Origin: an uncultured Bacteroidales bacterium
GTDB lineage: Bacteria > Bacteroidota > Bacteroidia > Bacteroidales > VadinHA17
Length of the DNA: 64,000 nt
Assembly: GCA_963829255.1 (NCBI GenBank)
Contig: CAWHIG010000016.1
Location: 10,145 to 74,144 of the forward strand
Direction: 5' to 3'
The notes under the pieces were generated by a model, which was given only the letters and a program-made list of their open reading frames with translations, ran no database searches and was not told the origin of the DNA. The position numbers and the translations under genes were made by a program. This document shows, one piece after another, positions 1 to 42,711 of this stretch (position 1 is the first letter of the stretch; every line of letters starts with the position of its first letter).

Positions 1-223
1 TTCTTTTCATCTTGTAACATAAGATGAATCCGCTGTCATCACTTTCCATCATCAGGTCAAAGATAGCCAGGTCAGGTTTGAATCTTGCAATTACCGATTC
101 TGCCTCAGCCTGACTTTCCACAGCAATAGTTTTGTAACCTTCTTTCTCAAGATTGAAGACTGTCTGAAAAAGGTAATCCGGATCATCATCAGCAACAAGT
201 ATCGTTATATCACTCTTTTTCAT
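1..223 (-). CDS. Response regulator, receiver (REC) domain; only the first 74 codons are present, the gene runs off the window start
   Basis: Own translation from ATG at 223 on the minus strand: MKKSDITILVADDDPDYLFQTVFNLEKEGYKTIAVESQAEAESVIARFKPDLAIFDLMMESDDSGF... It has the acidic DDD pocket and a phospho-acceptor Asp in FDLMM, as in CheY-like receivers. It lies directly downstream of the kinase fusion on the same strand. Confidence 0.8.
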   Translation of the reverse strand, partial: MKKSDITILVADDDPDYLFQTVFNLEKEGYKTIAVESQAEAESVIARFKPDLAIFDLMMESDDSGFILCYKMKR

Positions 224-302
224 CTTTCCACAAATTTCTAAAAATTCTTTAAATCAAACAGTTAATATGATAAATATGATTGTTGTTAATTTAATAACAT
301 TG

Positions 303-420
303 GTGCTGGGTACTGGGTACTGGGTGCTGGTTGCTTAGTCTCTCAGTCTCTCAGTCTCTCAGTCTCTCAGTCTCTCAGTCCCTTAGTCTCCTCTTCTCCT
401 CTTCACCTCTTCACCCCTTC
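303..420. repeat. Three consecutive short tandem arrays: GT(G/A)CTGG x4, (T/C)(T/C)AGTCTC-type 8-mer x7, CTCTTCAC-type 8-mer x3-4
   Basis: Read directly: 303-330 gtgctgg gtactgg gtactgg gtgctgg; 335-390 ttagtctc tcagtctc (x4) tcagtccc ttagtctc; 391-420 ctcttctc ctcttcac ctcttcac cccttc. It sits between the kinase stop and the response-regulator start. Confidence 0.9.
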
Positions 421-2381
421 TATTCTTTCCTCCTTGGCAACACAATTTTAAAACTCGTTCCGGTTGCACCTTTGGCAGGATTATTATTCGAATCTGCAGT
501 GATCTGACCTTTATGCATTTTAACAATGCCATAGGCAGTTGCCAGTCCCAGTCCGGTTCCCTGTCCGATGCTTTTGGTCGTAAAGAATGGTTCGAAAATC
601 TTAGCCCGGTCTTCCTCCTTTATACCCGTACCTGTGTCACTTATAACAATTATTACGTCGCTGAGAGTGTCTTCCATCTTAATATTGACTGTTCCTCCTG
701 CCGGCATTGCATCAAAAGCATTCTTAATAAGATTTGTCAGTACCTGCATCATCTGTTCCTGATCGAGCATAGCTTCAGGATTTGTCGTCCTGTCATCGAT
801 ATTGATTTTAATCTTTGCAGGAATAATGAGGCTTTCAAGGCTGTGTTCTACCAGATCTTTAATACTGACTGTTTGATGGTTAACCTGATTCTTGCGGGCA
901 AAATTCAAAAGACCTGCAACAATTTTCTTGCATCTTCCGGCCTGGTCAACAATCAGTTTAAGATCTTCTCTGACAGGATCTCCGGCTTTCGATTCTTCCA
1001 GGAGAATGTTGCTGTACATTATTACGACTCCGAGAGGATTATTCAGCTCATGTGCTATACCTGCCGAAAGCTGGCCCATATGAGCCAGTTTTTCTGACTG
1101 TTTAAGAGCCTGTTTCATCGATGAGAGCTTCTCGTTTGATAATGCCAGATCCTTTACTGATTTGTGAAGTTTTTCGATAGTATAAGGCAGACACATCTCA
1201 ACTTCAGCCAGTCCCTTTTTGATTGCTATTGCATGCTCCACACAGCTTTCATAACCGCATGCACCACAATCGAGCTGATCCTTCTTTGTCTTCTTACCCA
1301 TCTTAATAAGAATCTCATTCACATCATTCTCATTAAGAGTCTCAATCCCATGATCTTGTGGTTTATGCCTGATCGACAGGTCCAACTCCGCGTATTCGTC
1401 AAACGATTTTTGCCAGCTCTCAGAATCGATATTTTGCATTTTACTGTTGGCATAGGAGCTTACCAGTGACCTTCTGTTGTATTGCTTACCGTTTTTTGAT
1501 AAACCGGGTCCCATAATACATCCCTCACAGCAAAGAAGTTCCATATGCTGGTTCTTAATCAGACCGGCTTCAAATTCCTTTAAGGCTCCCTGAAAGTCAA
1601 TTCTTCCTTCAGCAGCTATAATATTCCCTGTTATCGCATTGTCGCTTATCTTGGCTGTCTGAAGTAATCCACGGGCAACCGGGAAAATAGCACCTCTTCC
1701 GCCAAGAGGCTGATCAAATTCTACCGGGGTACCTGTCTCAGTGGTGATACCTCTCTCAGACAGCATATCTCTTAATTCGGTAAATGTTATAGCCTCATCA
1801 ACTTCACTGCTTTCAGCTTTCTTGGCAATACAGGGTCCGATAAATACAATTCTTGTATCCTTGCCATATTTTTCACGCATCACTCTGCTCATAGCCACCA
1901 TTGGAGAAACAACAGGAGCCAGGTTATCTACAAGAGCAGGGTGATAAAATTTGACATAGTTAACAATTGAGGGGCAATCAGATGAAATATAAAAATTTTT
2001 TCCCTCCGAAACAAGTTTTTTATATCTGTCTGCAACCAGGTCAGCACCGAAAGAAACTTCTGCAACGAATTCAAAGCCCAGCGCCTTAATCATACCTGTA
2101 AGAATATGATGATCAGGGATATCAGAGAATTCTGCGGGAAAACTGGGAGCAACAATAGCTGCAACTTTCGATTCACTTTCGAGAAGTTTTGCTACCCTGT
2201 CGGTTGTATTAAGAAAGACCTTTGCTCCCTGGCTGCACACTTTTGTACAATTGCCGCAGGCTATGCATCGCTCATCAATTACCTCGGCCTGTCCTCCCAC
2301 AATCCGGATAGCTTTGGCAGGACATTCCCTTACGCAGGTATAGCATGTACGGCAAAGCTCCTTTATTGTGTAAACCAACAT
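420..2381 (-). CDS. Putative sensory [FeFe]-hydrogenase-like protein (HydS-type H-cluster domain) fused to a histidine kinase (HisKA + HATPase_c)
   Basis: 653-aa ORF. It has two ferredoxin motifs ([23 protein letters not shown]). The H-cluster domain has variant motifs P1 SSDCPS, P2 GPCIAKKAE and P3 [13 protein letters not shown]. An extra Cx2Cx4Cx16C motif follows ([26 protein letters not shown]), then a coiled coil. Kinase motifs are the H-box [14 protein letters not shown]-box [10 protein letters not shown] and G-boxes DTGTGI and GTGLGL. Confidence 0.85.
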
Positions 2382-2399
2382 GTTAATTCAGTCTTATAA

Positions 2400-4121
2400 T
2401 CATAATAATACATTTCTTTTCTCAAAATGAGTAAAGAATATCTTTTTATCTGCAATATCAGCATTATCTTTTAACAGCTTTTCATATAAGTTGATAAGAG
2501 ACGGCGATTTGCATGGGAGATTAATCGCCTCTGTATCATCAGCCTGGTATACAAGTTTCGACCTGTTCCTGATCTCATCCTTTGAGGGACTGAAAGGTAA
2601 ACCTGCCCCATGTACGCATCCACCCTGACAAGTCATCACTTCAATCAGGTCATACTTTTTACCGGCTGCCATGGAAACTTTTAACTTTGCCAGACCTGTC
2701 AGACCATCGACAACTGCGACGTTAACCCCGTTGTCTCCTACCATAACTGAAATTTCCCTGAATGTTCCTCCCGATCGCAGCTTTTTAAAAATCTGTTTAT
2801 CAGGCTCTTTCTTCATTTTTTGATAATGATATGTCCTGATGACACCTTCAGCCATCCCTCCCGATACTTCAGCCATTATGGCGGCTGAGCTTCTTCCGGA
2901 CAGAGGTTCATCTGCCGGTTCATGTTCAATGTTTGAAGTGTCGATGCCGTATAACCTTATAAGCCTGGCCAGTTCTCTCACTGTCAAAACAGTATCCACA
3001 TCACTTATACCTTTTCTCATCATCCCGTCGCGACGGGCTTCAAATTTCATTGCCATGCAGGGAGTTGCAGATACAGAAAAGATCTCTTCAGGTTTAACCT
3101 GCAGCTGATCCGCTACCAGAGTCTTGATCAGTACGCCGGTGATCTGTTGCGGAGATTTTACGGTCGAGAGTTGAGGAATAAGCGAAGGAATAAATTGCTC
3201 AGCATATTTTACCCATGCAGGACAGGCAGAGATATACAAAGGGGTATCTGACTTATTCTCAATTCTGCCGGAGAGCTGATCTGCGATCTCGGATATACAA
3301 ACATCAGTACCTAATCCTGTTTTAAAGACCTTATCAAAACCAATTTTACGCAGGATGGCATTGAGAATCTTATCAAATTCCCTGGTATATCTCATCCCAA
3401 GTTCCTCGGCAATTCCGTAAACAACCATGGATGAATACTGAATGACCTTTACTATTTCAGGTTTATTAAGATATTCCTGTACTTCTGTAATATTGTGTTT
3501 TTCATGAAGAGCCCCGGTAGGGCAAACAAGTACACACTGGCCGCAATGAATACAGCTTGAAAAGTTAAAGTCCCTGTCCATGGCGGCGCCAACATGTGTT
3601 TCTCTTCCTTTATTAATAAAATCAAGTGATGTTGCAGTAATTACCTCCTCACAGACTCTGACGCATCGCCCACAGAGTATGCATTTGGACAATTCCCGTA
3701 TAATTGCCGGGCTGGATTGGTCGAGACGTGGTTTTATTTTTCTTCCGCGTATGCGCCTCTCTCGTATATTGAGCTCTTCAGCAAGCCTTTGAAGTTCACA
3801 ATTCAGGTTCCGGTCGCAGTACAGGCAATCGTCAGGATGGTTTGACAGCAGCAGTTCGACTATAGTTTTTCTTGCGGTAATTACCCTTGGGGAGTGTGTT
3901 TTAATTTTCATCCATTCCTCAACCGGCTGTGAGCAGGCTGTTACAAGACGGTCACGTCCTTCGACTTCAACAACACACATTCTACAGGCACCTGTAGGTG
4001 TAAACTCCTTCATTCTGCAAAGCGTCGGTATAATAATTCCGTTGCGATTAAGGGCGGAAAGGATTGTTTCACCCTTTTCGGCTTTGATCTTCTTATTATT
4101 TACCTGTAGTGTAAAAAGCAT
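2400..4121 (-). CDS. hydA: [FeFe]-hydrogenase large subunit, HydA-like (NuoEF-coupled architecture) with non-canonical H-cluster motifs
   Basis: 573-aa ORF. The N-terminus is 2Fe-2S ferredoxin-like, followed by HPDDCLYCDRNLNC and two 4Fe-4S motifs (CILCGRCVRVC, CIHCGQCVLVCP). The H-domain motifs are ISACPAW, TPCMAMKFE and EVMTCQGGCVHGAGLP, with a small-subunit-like C-terminal tail. It starts 5 nt after hydB ends and stops 18 nt before the next gene. Confidence 0.85.
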   Translation of the reverse strand: MLFTLQVNNKKIKAEKGETILSALNRNGIIIPTLCRMKEFTPTGACRMCVVEVEGRDRLVTACSQPVEEWMKIKTHSPRVITARKTIVELLLSNHPDDCLYCDRNLNCELQRLAEELNIRERRIRGRKIKPRLDQSSPAIIRELSKCILCGRCVRVCEEVITATSLDFINKGRETHVGAAMDRDFNFSSCIHCGQCVLVCPTGALHEKHNITEVQEYLNKPEIVKVIQYSSMVVYGIAEELGMRYTREFDKILNAILRKIGFDKVFKTGLGTDVCISEIADQLSGRIENKSDTPLYISACPAWVKYAEQFIPSLIPQLSTVKSPQQITGVLIKTLVADQLQVKPEEIFSVSATPCMAMKFEARRDGMMRKGISDVDTVLTVRELARLIRLYGIDTSNIEHEPADEPLSGRSSAAIMAEVSGGMAEGVIRTYHYQKMKKEPDKQIFKKLRSGGTFREISVMVGDNGVNVAVVDGLTGLAKLKVSMAAGKKYDLIEVMTCQGGCVHGAGLPFSPSKDEIRNRSKLVYQADDTEAINLPCKSPSLINLYEKLLKDNADIADKKIFFTHFEKRNVLL

Positions 4122-4126
4122 AAAGG

Positions 4127-6061
4127 TTATTTAACATTTACTGCACTGAACTTACAAATATCAAAACAGATACCACAACCGATACATTTTTCTTCGACAA
4201 TAAAGAAAGGCTGAAGTCGTGTTCCATAAATCGCGTTTACAGGGCATTTTGAAGCACAGGCTGTGCAACCGGTACATTTGTCCACATCAATTGAGAATGT
4301 TCTTAATCCCCTGCAGATATTTGCCCTGCATTTTCTGTCAAAAATATGCTCTTCAAACTCATCTCTGAAATTCTTCAGAGCGCTGATGAATGGGTTTGGA
4401 GCAGTCTGCCCAAGTCCGCAAAGTGAAGTGTCCTTCATTACTGATGCGATTGTTTCGAGTTGCATGACTCCTTTAAACCTTTCAAGAGTTGTACCTGATT
4501 CTTCATTTAAAGGTTTCCTGATCACACTTTCCAGTATCTCGAGCATCCTGCCGGTACCTTCACGGCATGGGATACATTTACCACAACTTTCGTTACGGAT
4601 AAATTCCATATAATATCTTACAAGATCAACCATACAGGTGTTCTCATCGATAATGACGAATCCTCCTGCTCCCATTCCAATCCCTTTTTCTTTAAGATCT
4701 TCGTAATCAACGGCAATATCGAGATTTTCACTTGTTATGAAAGAACCCGAAACGCCTCCGAGCTGTATTGCCTTAAACTCTTTTCCCCCCTTTATTCCAT
4801 CAGCAATATCTTCCAGAACTGTCCTGATAGTTGTGCCCATTTCGATCTCAACGACGCCCGACATACGACCTTTTCCTGCAACTGCAAATACTTTGGTACC
4901 CGGACTGTTTTCGGTTCCCAGCGTCCGGAACCATTCTGGTCCGTTCTGCATTATCAGGGGGACATTCATCAGAGTCTCCACATTGTTTATCACTGTCGGT
5001 TTTCCGAATAGTCCGGCGGTTGTAGGATAAGGAGGTTTTAGTTGAGGCATGCCCCGTTTTCCTTCAAGAGTATTTATCAGAGCAGTCTCTTCACCGCAAA
5101 CGAAAGCTCCGGGTTCAATACGGATCATAATATCAAGATTATAACCGCTTGAGAAAATATTATGTCCGAAAAGCCCGTAATCTCTGGCCATGTCGATTGC
5201 TTTCTGAAGCCTGTTCTTAGCATGGTCAGAACCCGATCTCATAAATATAATGGCATTTGAGGCCCCAATAGCATATGCAGCAATTGCAATACCTTCTATA
5301 AGGCGGTGCGGATCGCTTTCAAGAATGGTTCTGTCAGTAAAAGCTCCGGGATCGCTCTCTTTTGCATTACAGATAAGATACCGTGCATTTGAAGTAGTAT
5401 TCAGAGCATGCTTCCACTTTAGTCCTGTCAGATATCCTCCGCCGCTTCTGCCTCTCAATCCGCTTCTTTCAATTATGTCGCATACCTCTTCAAAAGTATA
5501 ATTTCTGATTGCTTTGATATATGCACGATAGCCTCCACGGGCTATATATTCATTAATGCTTTCAGGATCATAACATCCACAATTTCCAAGTATGATCCTT
5601 TTTTGTTTTTTGAAAAAAGGCAGCTCATCCATAAAAGGTATTCCGGACCACAGTTCAAAACCTTTAGTACCGATCTGACCGGCCAGATCATCCTCATTTA
5701 TATCATTATGAAAAACACCATTCAGAAGAGGCTCCACCTTCTCTTCTGTGATGTTTCTGAAGAACAGTTTATTCTTACCCGGGATCTGAACACATACCAG
5801 TGGTTCAAAAGTTGCAGGTCCGTTACACCCGACATTCACTAACGCTGCAGATGGTTCATTTTCCGTTAAATAGGTCTCGATTGCTGAACAGGTTTTTTCA
5901 GATCCTGCAATAATACTGCTTGTACCGGAAGAGATAAAGATTACCGGCTTGTCAGGCTTTTCCCTTCTCACCTGCTGCAATACCTTTTCTGTTTCCGGCA
6001 ATAATGTATCGGATTCAAACAAAAGTACTTTTTCAATCAGGAATGTTTTTAAATCTTCCAT
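4127..6061 (-). CDS. hydB: NuoF-like flavoprotein subunit of the hydrogenase complex (HydB-like)
   Basis: 644-aa ORF with NuoF/HydB signatures: GLRGRSGGGYLTGLKW, CNAKESDPGAFTDR and ESCGKCIPCREGT. The C-terminus has two 4Fe-4S motifs, CTGCTACASKCP and CIGCGICFDIC. Confidence 0.85.
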   Translation of the reverse strand: MEDLKTFLIEKVLLFESDTLLPETEKVLQQVRREKPDKPVIFISSGTSSIIAGSEKTCSAIETYLTENEPSAALVNVGCNGPATFEPLVCVQIPGKNKLFFRNITEEKVEPLLNGVFHNDINEDDLAGQIGTKGFELWSGIPFMDELPFFKKQKRIILGNCGCYDPESINEYIARGGYRAYIKAIRNYTFEEVCDIIERSGLRGRSGGGYLTGLKWKHALNTTSNARYLICNAKESDPGAFTDRTILESDPHRLIEGIAIAAYAIGASNAIIFMRSGSDHAKNRLQKAIDMARDYGLFGHNIFSSGYNLDIMIRIEPGAFVCGEETALINTLEGKRGMPQLKPPYPTTAGLFGKPTVINNVETLMNVPLIMQNGPEWFRTLGTENSPGTKVFAVAGKGRMSGVVEIEMGTTIRTVLEDIADGIKGGKEFKAIQLGGVSGSFITSENLDIAVDYEDLKEKGIGMGAGGFVIIDENTCMVDLVRYYMEFIRNESCGKCIPCREGTGRMLEILESVIRKPLNEESGTTLERFKGVMQLETIASVMKDTSLCGLGQTAPNPFISALKNFRDEFEEHIFDRKCRANICRGLRTFSIDVDKCTGCTACASKCPVNAIYGTRLQPFFIVEEKCIGCGICFDICKFSAVNVK

Positions 6062-6079
6062 CGGGGATTATTACAGGAG

Positions 6080-6574
6080 TTAGTCGTTTTCAATAATGTA
6101 CTTTAATTTTTTTATCAGTTCAGGAAGTTGCTCCGGTTTCACATGAGTATGATATTCGCCGTTCACATTGATAACCGGGCCATTACAACAGCCCCCCATG
6201 CATGAGACGATCTCATAGCTGAAATTGCCATCCCGTGTTGTCAGTCCTGGTAATACTCCAGTCTCTTCCCTTATTTTATTAATGATTGATTGTGATCCGT
6301 TAAGGAAGCATGAGGTGCCATTGCAGATCCTGATCTGAATTTTTCCTGAGGGAATGAACCTGAACCTGTCATAAAATGTAGCCAGGCCATAGATCTTTGT
6401 AGTGCTCAGACCTAAAAAGCTCCCTGTTTTAACAATAGCTTCCTCAGAGAGATAACCCAGATTGTCCTGTATTTCCTGAAGCAAAGGAATAAGATCTTCC
6501 CTTTTACCCTGTTTGTATTTTTTAAGAATTATTTCAAGATCAGTCGCCATCCAGATTATATTAAAGAATTTCAA
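6080..6574 (-). CDS. hydC: NuoE-like thioredoxin-fold [2Fe-2S] subunit (HydC-like)
   Basis: 164-aa ORF with a Cx4C...Cx3C pattern (ICNGTSCFLNG ... SCMGGCCNGP). An alternative start is the Met at 6550 (MATDLEIILKKY). Confidence 0.85.
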   Translation of the reverse strand: MKFFNIIWMATDLEIILKKYKQGKREDLIPLLQEIQDNLGYLSEEAIVKTGSFLGLSTTKIYGLATFYDRFRFIPSGKIQIRICNGTSCFLNGSQSIINKIREETGVLPGLTTRDGNFSYEIVSCMGGCCNGPVINVNGEYHTHVKPEQLPELIKKLKYIIEND

Positions 6575-6589
6575 TACAAAGATAATTGA

Positions 6590-6634
6590 TTTTATTGTTA
6601 ATAAATAAACATTGTTATTTTATTAACAATAAAA
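6590..6634. promoter_or_regulatory. Perfect 16-bp inverted repeat carrying three ATTGTTA/TAACAAT half-sites, immediately upstream of hydC; candidate repressor operator with Rex-like geometry
   Basis: TTTTATTGTTAATAAA (6590-6605) is the exact reverse complement of TTTATTAACAATAAAA (6619-6634). An inner ATTGTTA (6611-6617) and TAACAAT (6624-6630) are spaced by 6 nt. This is the same layout as TTGTGA-N6-TCACAA. Confidence 0.4.
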
Positions 6635-6855
6635 TAACTAACTATATTTATTATACTTTTTTAAATATATTATTGAATATTAACGTTTTACAAATTTTAA
6701 TAAAATCAGGTCGAGCATAAGTTACATCATCTGAAATGTAAGTCGGACCGGTTTTACATATTAATCATGTGAATCTAAGAAGAAAAGAGGTAGATAACAG
6801 CTCGGAAATAATTATTACTTTTGTTGCTGTTGTTTATTTATGAACAGAAAGAAAA

Positions 6856-7110
6856 ATGGCTCAAAGAATTGAGATGCAAATCTGTCTTGGAAGCTCCTGT
6901 TTTTCAAGAGGTAACAAAGACGTCGTAATGTTCATAAGAGAATATCTCAGGAAAAATCATCTTGATGACAAAGTTGTTTTTAAAGGTGCCCGATGTATGG
7001 GTCTTTGCAGTAATGGACCAAATCTGAGTATAAACGGCGTAACCCTTGAAGGGGTTACTCTTTCAAAAATAGAGAGTATACTTGAAAAAGAATTTGCCGG
7101 AATAGTATAA
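6856..7110 (+). CDS. Small thioredoxin-like [2Fe-2S] ferredoxin (NuoE-fold)
   Basis: 84-aa ORF with ICLGSSCFSRGN ... ARCMGLCSNGP, the same Cx4C/Cx3C spacing as hydC. It is the first gene of the plus-strand unit. Confidence 0.8.
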   Translation: MAQRIEMQICLGSSCFSRGNKDVVMFIREYLRKNHLDDKVVFKGARCMGLCSNGPNLSINGVTLEGVTLSKIESILEKEFAGIV

Positions 7111-7112
7111 GA

Positions 7113-7235
7113 AAAGTTTGAAGTGAGCTAAAGTTTGGAGTGACTAAAGTTGAAATGAAAGAATGAATAATGATAAAGTTGAATAATACTATAATACTTT
7201 AGCACTTTAGCACTCTAGGCACTTTAGGCACTAAT
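7113..7235. repeat. Inverted arrays of a CTAAAGT(G)/(C)ACTTTAG unit between the 2Fe-2S gene and the PAS sensor gene; potential long imperfect hairpin
   Basis: Left arm: aaagtttgaagtgagctaaagtttggagtgactaaagt. Right arm: actttagcactttagcactctaggcactttaggcact. The units are reverse complements of each other. Confidence 0.6.
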
Positions 7236-7245
7236 ATAAGTTAAT

Positions 7246-9132
7246 ATGGCAAACAGAAAGCCTGTTCTTTACATAAATGATGAAAAGTGCAGAAATTCAT
7301 ATTCCTGCGTACGAGTCTGCCCTGTAAACGCAATTGAGGTTAAACCCCAAAAGGCGCATCCGTTCATTCTTCCCGACAGATGCATCGGATGTGGTTTATG
7401 CTATGTTTCATGCACACCACACGCAATAGAATTCCGCGATTCAAAAGAATCAGTTAAGAAACTGTTATCATCCGGAAGAAAAACCGCAGCTCTTATTGAG
7501 CCAAGCATTGCATCGGAATTTGATGATATAACAGATTACCGGAAGTTCGTTGCTATGATAAGGTCGCTGGGTTTTGACTATGTTCACGAAGATTCGTTCG
7601 GAGTCGATCTGATAGCCGCTGCCTATGCAAAACTTTTCTTAAAAGCTGAAGGTAAATATCTGATCACGGCAAACTGCCCTTCAATTGTCAAACTTATTGA
7701 GAAGTTTCACCCCGAACTGGTTCCTAACCTTGCACCACTTGTCTCGCCTATTATAGCTACTGCAATGGTTGTAAAAAAGCTATACGGACCTGAGGTAGCT
7801 ACAGTTCAGATTGGCCCATGTATTGATGCAAAAGATGAATCGCTTATCTATGATTCAGATAAGCTTGTTGACGGAGTACTGACTTTTGTGGAACTGAGAG
7901 AGCTTTTTGATGAATTCAAGATCCAGGAAAGACTGGTAAAGATGTCCGATTTTGATCCGCCTCATGGAAATTGGGGGGCTCTCTACCCTCTGCCAGCAGG
8001 GATTATTCAGGCAGGAGGTATAAAGCGCGATATGGTTTCGAGCAGGGTAATTACAGCTTCCGGAAAAGAAGAAATCCTTGAAGCAATTAATGATTTCGAC
8101 AAATATATTGACACGATACAACACCATTTTAACTTATTCTTTTGCCATGGATGCCTGCTCGGTCCGGGAATGCAACATCATAATGAACGATTCAGGAGAA
8201 GAGCACTGGTGCGGAAGTATGCTGAAAAGAGAGTGGGCAAACTTGATAAAGCTCTCTGGCAAAAAAATATGGAAAAATGGTCAAAGCTGGATTTTTCAAG
8301 AGGTTTTACACCCGATGATCAGAGAATACCTGAACCGCCGGAAGAAGCTATTTTGGAGGTGCTTAAAATCATCGGCAAAAACAGCCCCGATGAGGAGATC
8401 AACTGTGGTGCCTGTGGCTATCTCTCTTGTCGTGAATTTGCTTCAACAGTTGCAAAAGGACTTGCGGTTCCGGAAATGTGCCATACCTTCAATCTTCGTA
8501 ATAAACAGGAATATATTGAGACTCTCCGGCAAACAAACAGGAAACTGGCTGAAACAAAAAAAGCCTTAAAAGAATCAGAAGAACTGGCACGCAGGGAAAA
8601 GGAGATTGCTCAAAGCACTTCAGATATGATGAACAACATGCTCGAAAAGCTTCCTTCCGGAGTGGTAATTGTTGATAATAATCTAAAAATACTTCATTCA
8701 AATCAAAGCTTTATTAACATAATCGGAGAGGATGCAAAAGCCATATCAGATGTAATTCCCGGTCTTGCCGGTGCAGATATCAAGACCCTCATCCCCTTCA
8801 ACATTTATAATATGTTCACATTTGTAATAAAGGAAGATGAACCTGTTGTAAGCAAAGATGTTCATTTTGAAGATAAAATGCTGAATATTTCCATCTTTCC
8901 GATAAGAAAGAACAAGATCTGCGGAGCAATAATCCGCGATCTGTATTCACCTGAAGTACAGGGGGAAGAGGTAACAAACAGAGTCAGTGAGGTGATTGAT
9001 AAAAACCTTGAAATGGTTCAAAAGATAGGATTCCTGCTTGGAGAAGGTGCATCTGAAACCGAGCAGATGCTGAACTCAATAATTGAATCGTACAAAACAA
9101 AAAAAGTGAATCTGAAAAACAACCTCAAATAA
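7246..9132 (+). CDS. Putative sensory [FeFe]-hydrogenase-like protein (HydS-type) with C-terminal PAS-like domain
   Basis: 628-aa ORF. Ferredoxin motifs are CRNSYSCVRVCP (3 Cys) and CIGCGLCYVSC. H-domain variants are P1 TANCPS, P2 GPCIDAKDE and P3 NLFFCHGCLLGPG. It has CGACGYLSCREFASTVAKGLAVPEMC, a coiled coil, then a PAS-like segment (LPSGVVIVDNNLKILHSNQSFINIIG...). Confidence 0.85.
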   Translation: MANRKPVLYINDEKCRNSYSCVRVCPVNAIEVKPQKAHPFILPDRCIGCGLCYVSCTPHAIEFRDSKESVKKLLSSGRKTAALIEPSIASEFDDITDYRKFVAMIRSLGFDYVHEDSFGVDLIAAAYAKLFLKAEGKYLITANCPSIVKLIEKFHPELVPNLAPLVSPIIATAMVVKKLYGPEVATVQIGPCIDAKDESLIYDSDKLVDGVLTFVELRELFDEFKIQERLVKMSDFDPPHGNWGALYPLPAGIIQAGGIKRDMVSSRVITASGKEEILEAINDFDKYIDTIQHHFNLFFCHGCLLGPGMQHHNERFRRRALVRKYAEKRVGKLDKALWQKNMEKWSKLDFSRGFTPDDQRIPEPPEEAILEVLKIIGKNSPDEEINCGACGYLSCREFASTVAKGLAVPEMCHTFNLRNKQEYIETLRQTNRKLAETKKALKESEELARREKEIAQSTSDMMNNMLEKLPSGVVIVDNNLKILHSNQSFINIIGEDAKAISDVIPGLAGADIKTLIPFNIYNMFTFVIKEDEPVVSKDVHFEDKMLNISIFPIRKNKICGAIIRDLYSPEVQGEEVTNRVSEVIDKNLEMVQKIGFLLGEGASETEQMLNSIIESYKTKKVNLKNNLK

Positions 9133-9138
9133 TCTTAA

Positions 9139-10284
9139 GTGAACAGGAACTTTTTTATAGAGGTTAACAGCCAGCAAAGGAACTTCGACGGGGAGAGGAT
9201 CAGCGGCGATGTATTTCTGTACAGGTATATTAAAGAAGAAGACAGGGTTGTTGCCGTATTATCCGATGGTATGGGACATGGGGTTAAGGCAAATATTCTT
9301 GCAACCCTTACGGCAACAATGGCCATAAATTTTACACGCGAACATAAGGAGGTTGACCGTATCGCTGAGATTATAATGAATACACTTCCGGTATGCAGCG
9401 AAAGAAAGATCAGTTATTCAACTTTTACAATTATAGATATTGAAAACAGCGGCAGGACAACAATACTGGAATATGATAATCCATCCTGTATTGTTTTAAG
9501 AGGGAGCCAGATATTTGATCCTTCATGGAAAAAAGTAGTGCTCGAGAAAGGTAAAAACTCAGGTAAGGTTCTGAAAACATGCACATTTTTGCCTGAGAAA
9601 GAAGACAGAATTATCTTCTGCTCTGATGGTGTTTCACAAAGCGGAATGGGAAGTGAACCATTTCCTTTTGGCTGGGAAAGGGACAGCATTGCCACTTATG
9701 CTGCATCGCTTGTTACAAGTGAAGCATCAATTTCTGCCAATATGCTTGCCGGAAAGATTGTTACGATGGCTCATAAAAACGACAACTATAAAGCCCGTGA
9801 TGATATAAGCTGTGCAACAATCTATTTCCGTGAACCCCGTAAATTAATTATCTGTACAGGTCCCCCATACGAGAAGGAAAAGGACAAAGATCTGGCCGCA
9901 AAAGTAGTTGCATATAAAGGAAAAGTGATCCTCTGCGGAGGTACAACAGCAGATATAGTTGCCCGGGAATTAAACAGGACTATTATTGATGAACTTATAT
10001 TCGAAGATCCGGAACTGCCGCCGGAAAGTTTCCTGGAAGGCATTGATCTGGTGACCGAAGGAATCCTGACACTTCAAAAGGTCAACGAAATATTGAAAAC
10101 TTATAATAACAGTGTAAAACTCGGAAAAGGACCGGCAGATAAGATCGTAAGGCTGATTATGGAGAGCGATGAGATTCACTTCGTTATCGGTACCAGGATC
10201 AATATCGCACATCAGGATCCTAATCTGCCTGTTGAACTTGAGATCAGGACGAACTGTAGTAAAGCGCATTGCGCGTCTGCTTGA
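9139..10284 (+). CDS. PP2C/SpoIIE-family serine phosphatase with an extra C-terminal domain
   Basis: 381-aa ORF with a GTG start 6 nt after the sensor stop. SpoIIE-type motifs are ISGDVFLY, VLSDGMGHGVKANILA and IFCSDGV. The 3' end may continue in the +1 frame to 10324 (see findings). Confidence 0.8.
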   Translation: MNRNFFIEVNSQQRNFDGERISGDVFLYRYIKEEDRVVAVLSDGMGHGVKANILATLTATMAINFTREHKEVDRIAEIIMNTLPVCSERKISYSTFTIIDIENSGRTTILEYDNPSCIVLRGSQIFDPSWKKVVLEKGKNSGKVLKTCTFLPEKEDRIIFCSDGVSQSGMGSEPFPFGWERDSIATYAASLVTSEASISANMLAGKIVTMAHKNDNYKARDDISCATIYFREPRKLIICTGPPYEKEKDKDLAAKVVAYKGKVILCGGTTADIVARELNRTIIDELIFEDPELPPESFLEGIDLVTEGILTLQKVNEILKTYNNSVKLGKGPADKIVRLIMESDEIHFVIGTRINIAHQDPNLPVELEIRTNCSKAHCASA

Positions 10285-10332
10285 GGAAAAATGGCTGAAG
10301 AAAGTGACTTTTGAATATATCTGAAAATTCAT

Positions 10333-10508
10333 TTAACCACAAAGTACACTAAGAAGGTGCCCCCTGGGGTTGTCTAAAAAGTCCTTTGTGAACCTTAGTG
10401 TTAACCTTAGTGTCCCTTTGCGGTAAAAAGTAAAAAATTGAACCACAAAGGATCACAAAGTACATCACAAAGGAACACAAAGGAGTGCACTTCACACTTT
10501 GTGGTTAA
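10333..10508. repeat. Palindromic CACAAAG-type intergenic element (terminal TTAACCACAAAG / CTTTGTGGTTAA)
   Basis: It starts ttaaccacaaagtacactaag and ends cacactttgtggttaa, with internal runs of cacaaagg / cctttgtg words. It lies between convergent genes, and the stop codon of the NUDIX gene lies in the terminal TTAA. Confidence 0.8.
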
Positions 10509-10944
10509 TGGATTTTTTTGATCTCTAAATACTCTATCGTCTTGTTGAACAAATGCGGCTGAATATCCGGATGAGTGAGATTTTCGGGAAGATGATCTGA
10601 CAAAACTATTTCAGCAATTTCCGAAATATCGGGTATCGGACCAATCTCAGAAACTTCAGCAAAGTAAAGCCTCCCCCAGCCTGTATCTCCGTCAATTGTC
10701 ACTGAATATGTTGCAACACATATTAGACTCAAATTTCAACAGCACCGGTTTCTTCCATTAATTCTCTTCCGGCTGCCTCAAATGAAGTTTCCCCCTCTTC
10801 AATATGACCTCCGGCAATCTCCCAGGTTGAACGCTTTTGATGCCGGACAAAAATCCATTTGCCTTTGAACCTGGCTGATATAACTGAATAGGTCAGTTTT
10901 GAATCAGGGACAAAAAGCGGGTCGAAAAATTTAACTTCGGTCAT
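10505..10944 (-). pseudogene. NUDIX hydrolase split by one frame shift (may be a consensus error)
   Basis: ORFs 10729..10944 and 10505..10732 are consecutive. The Nudix box GGHIEEGETSFEAAGRELMEETG is in the first part. The frames differ by 1, and the break is confined to aaattt at 10731-10736. Confidence 0.75.
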
Positions 10945-11028
10945 ATTACTCCGACATTGTAATTGCGAATGTAAGAATAATCGGGATAATTAATATTTGC
11001 TTACTTTTGATTATTAAAATTCATTCCA

Positions 11029-12231
11029 ATGGTATTATTGATTATTCTGATCATCACAGAGATTCTCACACCAGTTGTATTACGGCAGCATTTTTACAAC
11101 TATTCAAAGCCAAAATATTACATTTCAATTATTATTCACGTCATTCTTAGCATATGGGTCTGGATCCTTTATATTGAAACAACTTCCAATAAAACCTTTT
11201 TCGATAATCCCCGGCATGTCTGGTTGATGATGAATCTGACAGGAATGATTATTGCGGTGGTAATTCCAAGAATTATTCTGATTATTTTGCATTTCTCCGG
11301 AACATTAATAAAAATTAAGAGCAGAGGCCATGTAAGATCATTGACAAATTCAGGGCTTATTGTAATGAGTATTATACTAACAATAATAGCTCTGGGTTCA
11401 CTTTACGGAAGGTTTAATTTCAAGACAGAAGAAGTCACCATTAAAATCCAAGGGTTAAATAAGGATCTTGACGGTTTGAAAATCGTACAGCTATCTGATA
11501 TGCATCTCGCCACATTTTATCATCACAAAAAATTGTTGCAGAGGGTAATGGATGAAGTAAATACATATAAACCTGATCTGATTCTCAACACAGGTGACTT
11601 TGTCAGCTATGGATGGAGGGAGTTTGAAAGTGACGACACAATTCTCTCAAAAGCCCGGAGTAAATATGGCAATTTTGCTATTTTAGGTAACCACGATGTC
11701 GGAACTTATGACCCATATTTCACTGAAGCAGACAGAGAGAATAATATATTGATAATGAATAAATTGATCAAAGCTTCAGGATACCAGACACTTAATGATG
11801 AATTTAGAATAGTTAATATTGGAAAAGCAAAAATTGCACTTATAGGTGTTATCACCAAAGGACGGCATCCACATATGATTCATGGAGATCTGAACAAAGC
11901 AATTTCAGGACTTGACAGTGTTGACCTTAAGATACTTCTCACTCACGATCCAAATCATTGGGCTGAGGCAGTAACGGGGAAAACTGACATTGGGATCACT
12001 CTTTCAGGACATACTCATGGTATGCAGATGGGGATACTTACAAAAAAATTCAGATGGAGCCCGGCAAAATATTTCTATCCTCACTGGAATGGACTTTACA
12101 GAACCGGTAATCAATATCAATACGTCAACCGGGGACTTGGGGTTCTGGCAATTCCATTCAGAATATGGATGCCACCGGAAATAACAATACTAACAGTTAA
12201 AAGGAATAATCATACTGAATACAGATTTTGA
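11029..12231 (+). CDS. Membrane-anchored metallophosphoesterase (calcineurin-like)
   Basis: 400-aa ORF with an N-terminal multi-TM region. Phosphoesterase motifs are LSDMHL, TGDFV, GNHD and SGHTHG. Confidence 0.8.
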   Translation: MVLLIILIITEILTPVVLRQHFYNYSKPKYYISIIIHVILSIWVWILYIETTSNKTFFDNPRHVWLMMNLTGMIIAVVIPRIILIILHFSGTLIKIKSRGHVRSLTNSGLIVMSIILTIIALGSLYGRFNFKTEEVTIKIQGLNKDLDGLKIVQLSDMHLATFYHHKKLLQRVMDEVNTYKPDLILNTGDFVSYGWREFESDDTILSKARSKYGNFAILGNHDVGTYDPYFTEADRENNILIMNKLIKASGYQTLNDEFRIVNIGKAKIALIGVITKGRHPHMIHGDLNKAISGLDSVDLKILLTHDPNHWAEAVTGKTDIGITLSGHTHGMQMGILTKKFRWSPAKYFYPHWNGLYRTGNQYQYVNRGLGVLAIPFRIWMPPEITILTVKRNNHTEYRF

Positions 12232-31250: not shown

Positions 31251-32519
31251 TCATATTTTCCAGGGCCCGCGCATAGGTGGATTTATCAGTCTGTTGGCAC
31301 CATCATCATTGATAAACTGCTGTTTCACAGGATCATAATTGAGGTTTCTACCCAATCTAAGTGCAATTATTCCAAGGTTTACAATCGAACACGATCTGTG
31401 CCCATTGACCTCATTAAGTGCAAATTTTTTCCTGGAAAGAACTGATTCGGTGAACGTTCCAATTTGTGGGGAGGGATCGGGAAGAGAATCTATCAGTTTT
31501 TGAAAATCAGGAATATCAGATCTGAAACCTTTATATACTTTCCCGTTTGGACCTTCGATATAAGCAGCATCTTTATCGCGGTTTTCACCATCAAGAACTA
31601 TCTGGCACCCGTCACTATAAGTAAAAGTTATTCTCCGCCATGAGCCAACTGCATCATAATGTTGCTGAGGCGCATCAATTTCAACAGTTACCGGTCCGGT
31701 ATCATCTTTACCAAGAAAGTACTGAACAGGATCGAGATAATGCTGACCCATGTCTCCCAGGCCACCACCGTCATAATCCCAATATCCGCGAAATTTTGCA
31801 TGCACCCTTTCAGGATTATATGGCTTATACGGAGCGGGACCAAGCCAGAAATCGTAGTCAAGCTCAGCGGGGACAGGCATTGATTGCAGATTTTGAAGTC
31901 CACTCCAATAAAACTTCCAGTCGTAACCGGTTATTCCGCTGACTGTCACTTTAAGCGGCCAGCCAAGAGCTCCGCTATCGACGAGTTTCTTCAACGGTTT
32001 TACGGTCGTTCCAAGACCATAGAACTGATCTTTAAACCTGAACCATGTATTAAGACGGAACATCCGGCCATTTTTCTGAACTGCTTCAACCACTTTTATT
32101 CCTTCTCCGATTGTCCGAGTCATTGGTTTTTCACACCAGATATCTTTGCCAGCCTCAGCAGCAATTCTGGCTATAATACCATGCCAGTGAGGCGGAGTGG
32201 CAATGTGAACAATATCAATATCTTGTCTGGCAATCAGTTCACGAAAGTCGTGGTAACCTTTGATATTTCCTCCGGCCAATGCGATAGCCTGATCAAGGTG
32301 AGATCTATCTACATCACAAACCGCCAACAAGCGCGTACCTTCATATTCAAAGTGGTTCCGCCCCATCCCGCCAACTCCAATAATTCCTTTAGTAAGCTGA
32401 TCACTTGGAGCCGTATATCCCTGTCCTCCAAATATATGCCGGGGCACAATTGTCAAGGCAAGGGTAGTGATAACTGTTTTTTTCAGAAAATCACGTCTGT
32501 CTGATCTGACTTTTTTCAT
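31251..32519 (-). CDS. Gfo/Idh/MocA oxidoreductase with twin-arginine (Tat) signal
   Basis: 422-aa ORF with SDRRDFLKKTV at the N-terminus, a Rossmann segment (GIIGVGGMG) and an EKPM motif. Confidence 0.85.
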   Translation of the reverse strand: MKKVRSDRRDFLKKTVITTLALTIVPRHIFGGQGYTAPSDQLTKGIIGVGGMGRNHFEYEGTRLLAVCDVDRSHLDQAIALAGGNIKGYHDFRELIARQDIDIVHIATPPHWHGIIARIAAEAGKDIWCEKPMTRTIGEGIKVVEAVQKNGRMFRLNTWFRFKDQFYGLGTTVKPLKKLVDSGALGWPLKVTVSGITGYDWKFYWSGLQNLQSMPVPAELDYDFWLGPAPYKPYNPERVHAKFRGYWDYDGGGLGDMGQHYLDPVQYFLGKDDTGPVTVEIDAPQQHYDAVGSWRRITFTYSDGCQIVLDGENRDKDAAYIEGPNGKVYKGFRSDIPDFQKLIDSLPDPSPQIGTFTESVLSRKKFALNEVNGHRSCSIVNLGIIALRLGRNLNYDPVKQQFINDDGANRLINPPMRGPWKI

Positions 32520-32723
32520 GTTCGCAGGGTTTGCATTTAAGCAAAAAAAATTTAGAAATACGAATTGTAAATCAGGGTATTTAACTTATCCTAATTACTC
32601 TGCAATTTGCATGTTTTATAACCAATTAACAAGTAGGAAAGGTCTATTTTTTTTTAAAACCTGAATCATGTATTTGAGCAGCGTGAGAAGAAATCTGTAC
32701 CAGGACAGGCTTTAAAACCAGAA

Positions 32724-42340: not shown

Positions 42341-42711
42341 GGAAAAATCGTTTAAGGAATATTCTGTTCCGTTGAGCCGGATCAGACATATTGATCAGAA
42401 ATTGTAAAACATAAGGCAGCAATAGAGCCGTCTGCCAAGGCGCTGCATCATAAAACGGTATTTCAGTTTTGCAATCATCTGATACTTCAAGTTGGGTGCA
42501 AGTTAAAGCTTTTTAAGGAATATCAGAAATTTTATACTCAGGATAAAGCTCCATACAAATGCAGGCTAAGCTATGATCAGCTATTTTAGCCCCGTATATA
42601 AGCATTGATTATTAGATGATTAGTGCTTATATTTTAAATATTATTTAACATATAAAATACTAAAAGTCTGGAAGTTTAGTTCTAGATTTGTTACAGTCTA
42701 TACCTGCTAAC

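Follow-up and report, generated by a model that had tools for sequence, protein, structure and literature searches.

The window, a stretch of 64,000 nucleotides, carries what is probably the core of a conserved island for hydrogenase regulation in an uncultured Bacteroidales lineage, in which three sensing inputs surround one HydABC-type enzyme. The island is described by its gene content, the domain make-up of its products and the conservation of its cluster ligands, synteny and Rex boxes. On the minus strand, hydC, hydB, hydA and a gene for a HydS-type sensor fused to a histidine kinase follow one another with spacings of 18, 5 and 18 nt (an earlier note on this DNA had read gaps of 5-18 nt). 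A divergent plus-strand unit codes for three products: a small protein of the [2Fe-2S] type, a HydS whose C-terminal domain is PAS-like and a PP2C phosphatase. The AT-rich spacer between both units, previously given as about 280 nt, lies at 6575..6855 and measures 281 nt; the 500-base bin containing it (6501..7000) has a GC content of 27%. Every gene of this set was found in the order and at the coordinates given earlier, and the view that two paralogous HydS-type proteins with a common core and differing output ends stand beside a NuoEF-coupled HydA was also borne out. The two sensors share 37% identity over about 497 residues (E = 4e-110), in an alignment running from residue 2 to slightly beyond the coiled linker, and each shows about 27% identity with HydA over part of the H-domain only. 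Rex control, the relay past the window edge and the non-canonical HydA and HydB had been overlooked in the earlier note.

A search for co-occurrence of this gene order had been proposed, and both arms were present in 58 of the 62 species-level Bacteroidales genomes with enough flanking sequence, the phosphatase arm being missing from 4/62 loci. In most loci, HydG, a TM1266-like gene and HydE are located in the same island, after the REC, hybrid kinase, Rex and FAD-synthetase-like genes described below. The Fe-S and H-cluster cysteines were all 96-100% conserved among orthologues and, because of this conservation and of the recurrence in 58/62 genomes, chance was excluded as the origin of the arrangement.

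HydC (6080..6574, minus strand) is the NuoE-like [2Fe-2S] subunit (PF01257, E = 6.5e-44). Its true start is likely the ATG at 6550; the gene was called as 156 aa in the orthologous locus L001, and the TTG at 6574 is only 2 bases downstream of the promoter box. HydB (4127..6061, minus strand) was recognised by Pfam and NCBIfam matches as a NuoF-like flavoprotein whose C-terminus carries a 2x[4Fe-4S] domain. The thioredoxin-like domain at its N-terminus is devoid of cluster ligands, the B5 positions being S44, S49, C79 and A83 versus four Cys in 7T2R_B, and 66 orthologues share this loss. The predicted loss of the N-terminal [2Fe-2S] cluster (B5) from HydB is a new observation. HydA (2400..4121, minus strand), an M3-type [FeFe] hydrogenase subunit, contains Fer2_4, NADH-G_4Fe-4S_3, two Fer4 and Fe_hyd_lg_C domains. 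The best solved relative was T. kivui HydA1 (8a6t, E = 1.7e-123), and the score with the NCBIfam A6 model was 570 bits (cut-off 765). HydA retains the four Cys ligands and carries the substitutions E279I, E282Q, C299A, M353T and K358M (CpI numbering), a pattern also found in 71 orthologues. As judged from these residues, the canonical proton path and Lys358 are lost, which is likewise a new observation.

Both sensor classes are already known from HydDB group C. As the earlier note had supposed, the sensors fell outside the catalytic groups, with 88 bits for group A (NCBIfam cut-off 406) and 145-168 bits for group B (NCBIfam B1 cut-off 450). They carry a HydS signature (Asp or Asn at position 299, Met353 replaced by Gly and Met497 by Leu or Phe) and the C-terminal Cx2Cx4Cx16C cluster motif. 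The kinase-fused sensor (420..2381, minus strand) is ordered as 2x[4Fe-4S] domain, H-domain, Cx2Cx4Cx16C cluster, coiled linker, HisKA and HATPase_c, with Pfam matches to Fer4, Fe_hyd_lg_C, PF04060 FeS, HisKA and HATPase_c. Its sequence shows a legible H-box (AHELNNPL) together with N, G1, F and G2 boxes. All 17 of its ligand Cys were 96-100% conserved among 80 orthologues, and conservation peaked in the ferredoxin domain and in the FeS-coil-DHp stretch (column identity 0.94-0.99; H-domain, 0.82).

The response regulator that had been placed after the kinase is present. However, it lies 196 nt from the kinase gene, and in orthologues it consists of a receiver alone (131 aa, without output domain). 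The window edge cuts this stand-alone receiver (REC) gene, leaving its first 74 codons (1..223, minus strand; PF00072, E = 1.4e-8). The fragment shares 93% identity with the REC of locus L001 (131 aa) and shows both the acidic pocket DDD and, within AIFDLMM, the phospho-acceptor Asp. REC, a REC-histidine kinase hybrid, Rex and a FAD-synthetase-like gene were found downstream in all 63 loci with downstream flank. In L001, rex overlaps the end of the hybrid kinase gene by 4 nt, and the GIGNLG of the NADH-binding Rossmann domain is visible in Rex. A search for output domains, DNA-binding or other, was negative for the receiver, for the hybrid kinase and for the phosphatase.

The position of the kinase-fused sensor gene, 18 nt from hydA, would imply an enzyme-like and not a regulator-like expression, which counts against the island model. 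In one alternative, this protein, and perhaps the PAS one too, is a fourth HydABC subunit (the BfuT of Zheng & Huang), that is, a catalytic or electron-entry module whose kinase acts locally on the enzyme and not on gene expression. The location in one operon with hydA agrees with this, as do the 99% conservation of the N-terminal ferredoxin domain and the retention of Lys358 and the presence of Asp at position 299, Asp being the only substitution of the proton-transfer Cys tolerated by prototypical enzymes (PMC10055695). HydA also lacks the canonical proton path, so the better-equipped H-domain of the operon would be that of the sensor. However, HisKA and HATPase are intact with all catalytic boxes, two receiver genes are directly downstream in 63/63 loci, and the H-domain shows a sensory-enzyme pattern, with E279, E282 and S319 all replaced and Met353 changed to Gly. 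Solved structures of purified HydABC complexes (PDB entries) do not contain such a subunit, and in the A. mobile operon the hisK gene product is outside the holoenzyme (PMC9304861). We consider a fourth subunit quite improbable and retain the sensor-kinase assignment.

The divergent unit starts with a small thioredoxin-like [2Fe-2S] ferredoxin of 84 aa (6856..7110, plus strand; PF01257, E = 6e-11). It resembles the C-terminal half of NuoE, and its C10, C15, C47 and C51 were invariant in 59 orthologues. The second HydS-type sensor (7246..9132, plus strand) matches Pfam Fer4, Fe_hyd_lg_C and PF04060, and its Cys were 98-100% conserved (57 orthologues). The H-domain attributed to it earlier stands, whereas the PAS part is a candidate assignment: six PAS families match the same place, all of them below threshold (E between 0.002 and 0.06). 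Residues 406-544 also match NCBIfam MASE3_PAS_HK (E = 1.2e-6). Similarly, the two ferredoxin motifs ascribed to both sensors need a correction, as the first motif of the PAS type has three Cys (CX5CX3CP) and not four. Its H-domain has Asn at 299, Gly at 353, Ala at 358 and Phe at 497. Prototypical enzymes use Lys358 to hold a CN ligand at their [2Fe] subcluster. The PAS-type sensor lacks this Lys and, therefore, its capacity for a normal H-cluster is uncertain. The last gene encodes a SpoIIE/PP2C phosphatase (9139..10324, plus strand; PF07228, 45 bits against a cut-off of 25) whose metal-binding Asp (D24, D43, D163, D221 and D222) are invariant among orthologues. The end at 10324 given previously is where the frame read in orthologues would stop; an additional base near 10247 puts the window copy out of this frame, and consequently the ORF as read stops at 10284. 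The C-terminal part of the phosphatase, some 160 residues, is a conserved alpha/beta domain for which no Pfam match was obtained. The AF2 model of this domain (pLDDT 65.6) gave only generic Rossmann/flavodoxin-like fold matches.

The changes in the H-domains could mean that neither sensor still senses H2 and that both respond, as Fe-S sensors, to the ferredoxin/NADH redox poise or to oxygen, with a degenerate H-domain as scaffold. The strongly changed second-sphere residues, including the replacement of Lys358 by Ala in the PAS type, a loop between the last two Cys ligands that is one residue shorter and the three accessory clusters of each sensor protein are consistent with this reading, and Zheng & Huang found P1-P3 motifs hard to identify in the proteins that they assign to group C1 (PMC11406978). 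However, the four H-cluster Cys were 100% conserved in both sensor families (57-80 species), the maturase genes hydG and hydE are within the same island, and the H-cluster bound by T. maritima HydS is functional although the substitutions of this protein are comparable (PMC10055695). A loss of H2 sensing in both proteins is considered unlikely, and H2 is kept as the presumed signal.

A tandem pair of Rex-like operators (6595-6612 and 6612-6629, no strand) is predicted directly upstream of the hydC -7 box. Four Rex-type matches were observed in the window versus 0.85 expected, and none of 100 shuffles reached four. A Rex-like site by hydC, mostly paired, was present in 59/59 loci with the phosphatase arm, at about -27 to -64 from the hydC TTG at the usual spacer length. 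In locus L040 it is a perfect canonical TTGTGAAAATATTCACAA, a switch to the canonical half-site. The Rex-like boxes were the most conserved columns in an alignment of 53 spacers. This predicted operator pair on the hydC promoter of nearly every locus is a new observation. The -7 box of the hydC operon (TATCTTTG, 6577..6584, minus strand), whose columns were conserved in the same alignment, matches TAnnTTTG, which we take from Bacteroides promoters to be the Bacteroidetes-type -7 consensus. A second conserved spacer block contains a putative -7 box for the fdx/HydS-PAS/PP2C operon (TACTTTTG, 6816..6823, plus strand). Another Rex-like operator, TTGTTAATTTAATAACAT (283..300, no strand), with 2 mismatches to TTGTTAAnnnnTTAACAA, is located upstream of the REC gene. 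A site at this place occurs in the 28/80 loci that have long spacers. Its distance from the REC start is nearly constant (about -78; -76 to -79 except in one locus), and it is probably the sign of an internal promoter that serves REC, the REC-kinase hybrid and rex. The rex gene itself would lie downstream, just outside the window, its presence being deduced from its occurrence in 63/63 orthologous loci.

The promoter arrangement bears on whether the two arms work together. They could be functionally separate, the phosphatase arm being an hfsABC-like module for fermentation genes elsewhere that merely shares the intergenic region, with no integrated two-branch circuit. In agreement with this, each operon has its own promoter box and the Rex boxes are on the hydC side only. 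The 4/62 loci without the phosphatase arm retain the hydC Rex-like site and the kinase branch, and the HydS-PAS/PP2C module of Firmicutes occurs without a kinase-type sensor. However, the divergent adjacency is maintained in 58/62 species-level genomes and in three cultured Bacteroidota, and the product of the enzyme encoded between the sensors would be a signal for both. Separate arms are considered rather unlikely.

For the two-branch circuit we infer H2 as the ligand, the directions of the responses, every phosphotransfer step and both outputs. Rex would bind the tandem operator at the hydC promoter, and a rise in NADH/NAD+ would release it and switch on hydC-hydB-hydA and the kinase-fused sensor. 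In the latter, H2 may react at a slow, sensory-type H-cluster, from which electrons would pass to the C-terminal [4Fe-4S] cluster at the base of the coiled helix entering the phospho-acceptor helix. The redox state of this cluster would set autophosphorylation, and the phosphoryl group would be transferred to the stand-alone receiver, to the receiver of the REC-kinase hybrid or to both. The PAS-type HydS, probably serviced by the small [2Fe-2S] ferredoxin, may control the adjacent PP2C, by analogy with what has been proposed for hfsB/hfsC and R. albus HydS, and the PP2C would set the phosphorylation state of some Ser/Thr phosphoprotein.

Several known systems resemble parts of this island. The slow hydrogenase HoxBC of Cupriavidus necator also reports H2 to a histidine kinase, HoxJ, acting on a response regulator of hydrogenase genes, HoxA (PMC5707799). 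However, HoxBC is a [NiFe] enzyme with a metal centre and protein family unrelated to the present [FeFe]-type sensors, its sensor and kinase are separate proteins and not fused, and HoxA has a DNA-binding output that was not seen in the receivers of the island. Sensory enzymes of the TmHydS type resemble our sensors in having [4Fe-4S] clusters at the N-terminus, an H-domain devoid of the proton-transfer Cys, replacements of Met353 and Met497 and a four-Cys cluster at the C-terminus; a PAS domain is present in TmHydS as well. Compared by description, TmHydS has Ala131 where the present sensors have Asp or Asn. To our knowledge, TmHydS and one other are the only sensory enzymes studied biochemically, and both are without a kinase output. 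Despite its Ala at 299, T. maritima HydS does bind an H-cluster, with slow turnover (PMC10055695).

The HydS-PAS and PP2C pair matches hfsB/hfsC of Thermoanaerobacterium and hydS of Ruminococcus albus, in which HydS-PAS likewise adjoins a Ser/Thr phosphatase with a small gene ahead. Genetics in Thermoanaerobacterium indicated that this module is regulatory (PMC5707799, PMC11837493), and deletion phenotypes of hfsABCD and R. albus hydS point to fermentation (adhE) regulation. In contrast to the present locus, these systems lack a kinase-fused second sensor, and the ferredoxin-linked hydrogenase hfsD is in the same operon, whereas the enzyme of this locus, HydABC, is transcribed divergently. HfsA was described as matching no known proteins, while the small protein here, compared by description, is a clear thioredoxin-like [2Fe-2S] ferredoxin. 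For T. saccharolyticum, Rex sites of the same TTGTTAA type have been predicted ahead of hfsABCD, adhE and hydG (PMC5886521), and Caldithrix has a Rex site in front of rex-hydCBA (PMC5317091). The 18-bp palindromic operator type (TTGTGAAnnnnTTCACAA or TTGTTAAnnnnTTAACAA) before hydrogenase genes is common to the Rex regulons of anaerobes and this locus, which differs in its tandem pair sharing one base on a Bacteroidetes-type promoter.

The closest arrangement is sub-type V, bfuC-bfuB-bfuA-bfuT, of Caldithrix abyssi and Hydrogenedentota, with the same order and a kinase-fused H-domain protein after hydA (PMC11406978). In BfuA of this sub-type the Cys at the fifth P1 position is commonly missing, as in our HydA, although position 299 is Ser and not Ala. 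A kinase-fused sensor beside HydABC with Rex nearby has also been described for Elusimicrobia, Ignavibacterium and Caldithrix; in the latter rex is upstream of hydC (PMC5317091), whereas here it is downstream of the relay. The earlier note did not recognise the locus as described, but Zheng & Huang (2024) had noted that bfuCBA lies between two sensor genes in Perlabentimonas gracilis, Tenuifilum thalassicum and Williamwhitmania taraxaci, all three of them Bacteroidota, with the second sensor gene upstream of bfuC as at the present locus (PMC11406978). That work is a gene-cluster survey and does not include the PP2C, the small ferredoxin, the REC/REC-kinase relay or the Rex operators, nor does it describe the absence of Lys358, E279 and E282 from HydA or that of B5 from HydB. 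The earlier note had named a common, already characterised regulon as the finding that would speak against it; as the arrangement is common and previously noted but not characterised, this objection half applies. The locus belongs to a known, uncharacterised kind of two-sensor hydrogenase arrangement.

The ORF listing, together with Pfam and NCBIfam scans, bore out the gene anatomy proposed in the earlier note. On the minus strand, hydC (6080..6574, NuoE-like), hydB (4127..6061, NuoF-like with a C-terminal 2x[4Fe-4S] domain) and hydA (2400..4121, M3 architecture) are followed by the HydS-kinase gene (420..2381), with intergenic gaps of 18, 5 and 18 nt. HydS-kinase is a 653-aa protein comprising 2x[4Fe-4S], an [FeFe]-hydrogenase H-domain, a PF04060 four-Cys motif, HisKA and HATPase_c. 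Next on the same strand, 196 nt further on, comes a receiver gene that begins at 223 and is truncated at the edge of the window. The divergent spacer is 281 nt long, and G+C content is 27% in the 500-base bin 6501..7000. On its other side, the plus strand encodes an 84-aa, thioredoxin-like [2Fe-2S] protein (6856..7110), the 628-aa HydS-PAS (7246..9132), with ferredoxin, H-domain and four-Cys core as in HydS-kinase, and a SpoIIE/PP2C protein starting at 9139, 6 nt past HydS-PAS. The TTG start of hydC at 6574, taken from a mechanical ORF list, lies 2 bases downstream of the conserved promoter box TATCTTTG; the true start is probably the ATG at 6550, which would yield the 156-aa protein annotated in a related genome. 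HydS-kinase and HydS-PAS (hereafter the sensors) can be aligned over 497 residues that extend from the N terminus to the end of the coiled linker, with 37% identity (E = 4e-110), in agreement with the previous proposal of a common core with differing output ends. The two ferredoxin motifs attributed to each held in part: both sensors have the ferredoxin domain, but the first motif of HydS-PAS has three Cys. To HydA each sensor has only about 27% identity, confined to part of the H-domain, and no further H-domain was found within the window besides those of HydA and the two sensors.

The active sites were compared by aligning the three H-domain proteins of the window with 109 representatives of HydA relatives, the positions being known from CpI, whose numbering is used here. 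The four H-cluster Cys ligands (C300, C355, C499 and C503 equivalents) are present in HydA, HydS-kinase and HydS-PAS alike; in the sensors they are 100% conserved among 57–80 orthologues, and the last Cys pair is spaced one residue closer. Positions C299, M353 and M497 are occupied by D, G and L in HydS-kinase and by N, G and F in HydS-PAS. In addition, E279, E282 and S319 are replaced by Y, L and A in both sensors, while K358 is K in HydS-kinase and A in HydS-PAS. Putative sensory [FeFe] hydrogenases (HydS, HydDB group C / M2f) have been described as having C299, M353 and M497 replaced and no canonical proton path (PMC10055695), and therefore both sensors carry the sensory-enzyme signature in the alignment. 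Both also scored far under the NCBIfam cut-offs for groups A and B1, which, together with that signature, argues against their placement inside catalytic groups A or B. HydDB files PAS-type and kinase-type BfuT, the extra sensor-like proteins of HydABC (BfuABC) clusters, both under C3 (Zheng & Huang 2024, PMC11406978).

The C-terminal atypical [4Fe-4S] motif was recognized as PF04060 in both sensors (E = 2.5e-7 and 1.1e-8), with its four Cys invariant. Downstream of this cluster HydS-kinase has HisKA/HATPase_c instead of PAS. In the C-terminal region of HydS-PAS, six PAS families matched one place below their cut-offs (E 0.002–0.06), and a PAS-kinase NCBIfam model also matched. Column conservation in HydS-kinase was 0.99 for the ferredoxin domain, 0.94–0.96 for the stretch from the FeS cluster through the coil to DHp, and 0.82 for the H-domain. 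The H-cluster and Fe-S Cys of both sensors, HydA and the small ferredoxin are conserved at 96–100%. We consider it unlikely that the sensors read redox or oxygen via their Fe-S clusters only.

The three subunits expected of a group A3 (HydABC/BfuABC) operon were all recognized, i.e., an M3-type HydA, a NuoF-like HydB with FMN and a NuoE-like HydC. Nevertheless, the canonical motifs P1 (TSCCP), P2 (MPCxxKK) and P3 (ExMxCxGGCxxGxGQP) are not found in HydA, which reads ISACPAW, ATPCMAMK and EVMTCQGGCVHGAGLP, all kept in 71 orthologues. The fifth P1 residue of BfuA has been noted as often not Cys (Zheng & Huang 2024, PMC11406978). In HydA the proton-transfer Cys (C299A) and both Glu of the proton path (E279I, E282Q) are also replaced, as are M353 (by T) and K358 (by M), a pattern found again in 71 orthologues; S319 and M497 are canonical. 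Its score against the NCBIfam A6 model was 570 bits (cut-off 765) and it forms a 50% cluster of its own. The nearest clusters (at most 45% identity) are diverse M3 proteins with the same correlated losses and varying residues, and more distant representatives have the canonical residues. In HydB (4127–6061), only one of the four B5 cluster ligands remains in the N-terminal thioredoxin-like domain (residues 44–83), the other three positions being S44, S49 and A83; this holds for all 66 orthologues. Among the other clusters, B1 and B3/B4 were mapped, and their Cys are 100% conserved. B5 was listed as conserved in all Bfu enzymes (Schut 2022) and has been regarded as a possible remnant (Feng et al.). 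These losses in HydA and HydB indicate an enzyme of HydABC-like architecture but departing from the canonical bifurcating family in two sequence features. They could be taken to mean that none of the three H-domains is a bulk catalyst and that HydABC is a slow comparator of H2 vs. NADH/ferredoxin, cooperating with or docked to HydS-kinase, so that the island would compute redox poise vs. ambient H2 and report it via His-Asp and Ser/Thr branches; we give this reading very little credence. Two related loci from long-read assemblies, L001 (6320–8255) and L040, show hydB as a pair of ORFs, probably owing to frameshift errors.

Conservation of the island was studied in related genomes. Over 120 database clusters, at an identity of 90% or higher, represent HydS-kinase, and the closest-homologue lists contained only orthologues with at least 86% identity. 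A species-level scan (one genome per species) gave 333 HydS-kinase relatives, the best 80 of which (78–94% identity) were surveyed by tblastn; all 80 are uncultured Bacteroidales metagenome-assembled genomes, from fen, peat, lake sediment, soil and digesters. This survey and L001, on a 2.75-Mb contig, supplied the full gene order, which continues past the window edge: hydC, hydB, hydA, HydS-kinase, a receiver of 131 aa without output domain (REC), a REC-HisKA-HATPase hybrid of 393 aa, Rex and a FAD-synthetase-like gene, with hydG, a TM1266-like gene and hydE next in most loci. REC, the hybrid kinase, Rex and the FAD-synthetase-like gene occur in all 63 loci having enough downstream flank, and in L001 (13742–15210) the hybrid-kinase gene and rex share 4 nt where one ends and the other begins. 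The gene after rex (63/63 loci) encodes a 276-aa protein with only a FAD-synthetase (nucleotidyltransferase) domain. Opposite hydC lies the divergent arm of ferredoxin, HydS-PAS and PP2C, found in 58 of the 62 loci whose sequence reaches 4.5 kb or more beyond hydC on that side. Both arms thus co-occur among these Bacteroidales loci, answering a check suggested in the earlier note. We hold it to be somewhat unlikely that the two arms are functionally unrelated neighbours; this frequency of co-occurrence speaks against it, and four loci (L046, L054, L073 and L078) which are without the ferredoxin/HydS-PAS/PP2C arm and keep the Rex box speak for it.

In HydS-kinase the HisKA (49.8 bits) and HATPase_c (85 bits) domains have readable H-box, N, G1, F and G2 boxes. 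Response_reg matched the receiver fragment of the window and both L001 receivers, with a readable acidic pocket and phospho-acceptor Asp, and kinase and receiver are adjacent in 63/63 loci. These domains are to be weighed against the alternative that the sensors are extra enzyme subunits ("BfuT"), which appears distinctly unlikely to us in spite of the short gap between hydA and the HydS-kinase gene. As signaling proteins, the sensors would feed a phosphorelay and a phosphatase. The PP2C protein matched PF07228 with 45 bits (cut-off 25); the metal-binding Asp motifs (GD, DGxGHG, DG, DD) were found, and D24, D43, D163, D221 and D222 are invariant. A PDB profile search gave only a marginal match to RsbX. 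No STAS substrate or Ser kinase, as expected in a partner-switching context, was found near PP2C among 27 scanned window ORFs (420–36321, 42688–45060) or in the L001 flanks. The C-terminal alpha/beta domain of PP2C, of about 160 residues, is highly conserved and without Pfam match. The structure prediction of the full-length protein was too poor for use (pLDDT 43); that of the C-terminal domain alone (pLDDT 65.6) retrieved by Foldseek only generic Rossmann/flavodoxin-like folds (TM at most 0.43). The idea that this domain is receiver-like and links both branches was discarded, since an acidic pocket is absent and none of the fold matches was specific. No recognizable output domain was found in either the kinase or the phosphatase branch. 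In the window, the PP2C gene has one extra base near 10247, due either to an assembly error or to a real frameshift: read without correction, the ORF stops at 10284 after the foreign tail TNCSKAHCASA, while the +1 frame reads RTVVKRIARLLEEKWLKKVTFEYI*, like every 394-aa orthologue, and ends at 10324, the end previously assigned. On the minus strand, 15397–17856 encodes another SpoIIE/PP2C-domain protein (819 aa), whose long N-terminal region has no Pfam matches.

Two overlapping candidate Rex operators were identified in the hydC-proximal part of the divergent spacer, at 6595–6612 and 6612–6629, with 2 mismatches and 1 mismatch, respectively, to TTGTTAAnnnnTTAACAA. The window holds four Rex-type 18-bp matches vs. 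0.85 expected; the 5' leader of fdx has a third Rex-like stretch, which differs at 3 positions in the window and was excluded from the count. In all 59 loci with the phosphatase arm a Rex-type site, mostly paired, lies at one and the same place, about −27 to −64 from the hydC TTG at the usual spacer length; a site is also present in the 4 loci without the arm. L040 has a perfect canonical box, TTGTGAAAATATTCACAA, upstream of hydC, and the other loci have TTGTTAA-type boxes. These boxes are the most conserved columns of the divergent spacer, followed by TATCTTTG, which matches the Bacteroidetes −7 box. The Bacteroidetes-type promoter boxes were taken from conserved columns of the spacer alignment, scans of the sequence for sigma-70 promoters and terminators having stayed at chance level. 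Another candidate site, at 283–300 before the REC gene, keeps a nearly constant position of about −78 in 28 of 80 loci. A rex gene (PF06971 plus Rossmann domain) lies outside the window and is present in 63/63 orthologous loci, so that the conserved 18-bp promoter palindrome and the rex gene expected of a Rex-controlled operon are both evident from sequence. TTGTTAA-type Rex sites were predicted in T. saccharolyticum upstream of hfsABCD, adhE and hydG (PMC5886521), and a Rex site preceding rex-hydCBA was described in Caldithrix (PMC5317091). Given these precedents and the conservation of the predicted operators, Rex repression, which would be released by NADH, is the best-supported regulatory step. 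A GFO/IDH/MocA oxidoreductase gene on the minus strand (31251..32519) is likewise preceded, at a distance of about 100 nt, by a weak Rex-like site (32615–32632, 2 mismatches). No Rfam RNA family was detected in 1..12000 at E up to 0.1. Tandem repeat arrays of 6–29 nt period occur at 302–432, 7113–7232 and 18 other places, many of them intergenic (e.g., AGTCTCTC x6.8, AAGGTT x12 and GAAATGAATA x6.9). The tandem 8-mers at 302–432 and 7113–7232 were discarded as regulatory elements because twenty such arrays in the window point to a genome habit.

From the parts observed, their conservation and the predicted operators, a working of the island can be proposed following what is known of each protein family. 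At high NADH, Rex would leave the hydC promoter. HydS-kinase would then oxidise H2 slowly, and the redox state of its C-terminal cluster, which would sit at the foot of a helix running on into the phospho-acceptor helix, would set autophosphorylation. The phosphoryl group would pass to the stand-alone receiver, to the receiver of the hybrid kinase or to both, the target of the hybrid presumably lying elsewhere. Finally, HydS-PAS, which probably exchanges electrons with the small ferredoxin, may control PP2C, as proposed for hfsB/hfsC, the HydS-PAS/phosphatase pair of Thermoanaerobacterium, and for R. albus HydS.

The arrangement had not been recognized as described when first noted; however, it already appears in genome surveys. 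HydDB (2016) defined putative sensors as histidine-kinase-linked (C1), chemotactic (C2) and phosphatase-linked (C3). In Elusimicrobia, a group C hydrogenase-HATPase fusion immediately precedes trimeric group A genes, and Rex is close by, an arrangement likened to those of Ignavibacterium and Caldithrix (Meheust et al.). Zheng & Huang (2024, PMC11406978) described "sub-type V" bfuCBA-T clusters, whose BfuT is kinase-fused and assigned to HydDB group C3, and an additional bfuT upstream of bfuC in three Bacteroidota, with "implications unclear." The phosphatase arm is the counterpart of hfsB/hfsC, for which deletion phenotypes exist. In view of these precedents the arrangement is known from genome surveys, yet uncharacterised. 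The original observation is confirmed as a whole and its interpretation is supported in part. What is added here is the extent and conservation of the island across a large environmental Bacteroidales lineage, the predicted Rex operator pair, the relay past the kinase, and the non-canonical HydA and HydB, which bear on the question of which residues a HydABC enzyme really needs.

The locus is a good experimental entry to H2 sensing and not a new kind of system. H2 sets the thermodynamic limit of fermenter metabolism and couples fermenters to methanogens; to our knowledge, the molecular basis of its sensing in fermenting bacteria is still unknown, and we know of only two putative [FeFe] sensors that have been studied, as isolated redox proteins without measurable output. 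The fusion of a sensor to a histidine kinase offers a simple biochemical read-out, namely autophosphorylation with and without H2, and a single 20-kb island brings together two receivers as candidate partners, another sensor whose output would be a phosphatase, and a repressor expected to respond to NADH, for which clear operators are predicted. Metagenomes from peat, fen, lake sediment, soil and digesters contain this lineage in abundance, so that the circuit probably has an effect on the release of H2 in habitats where methane is produced.
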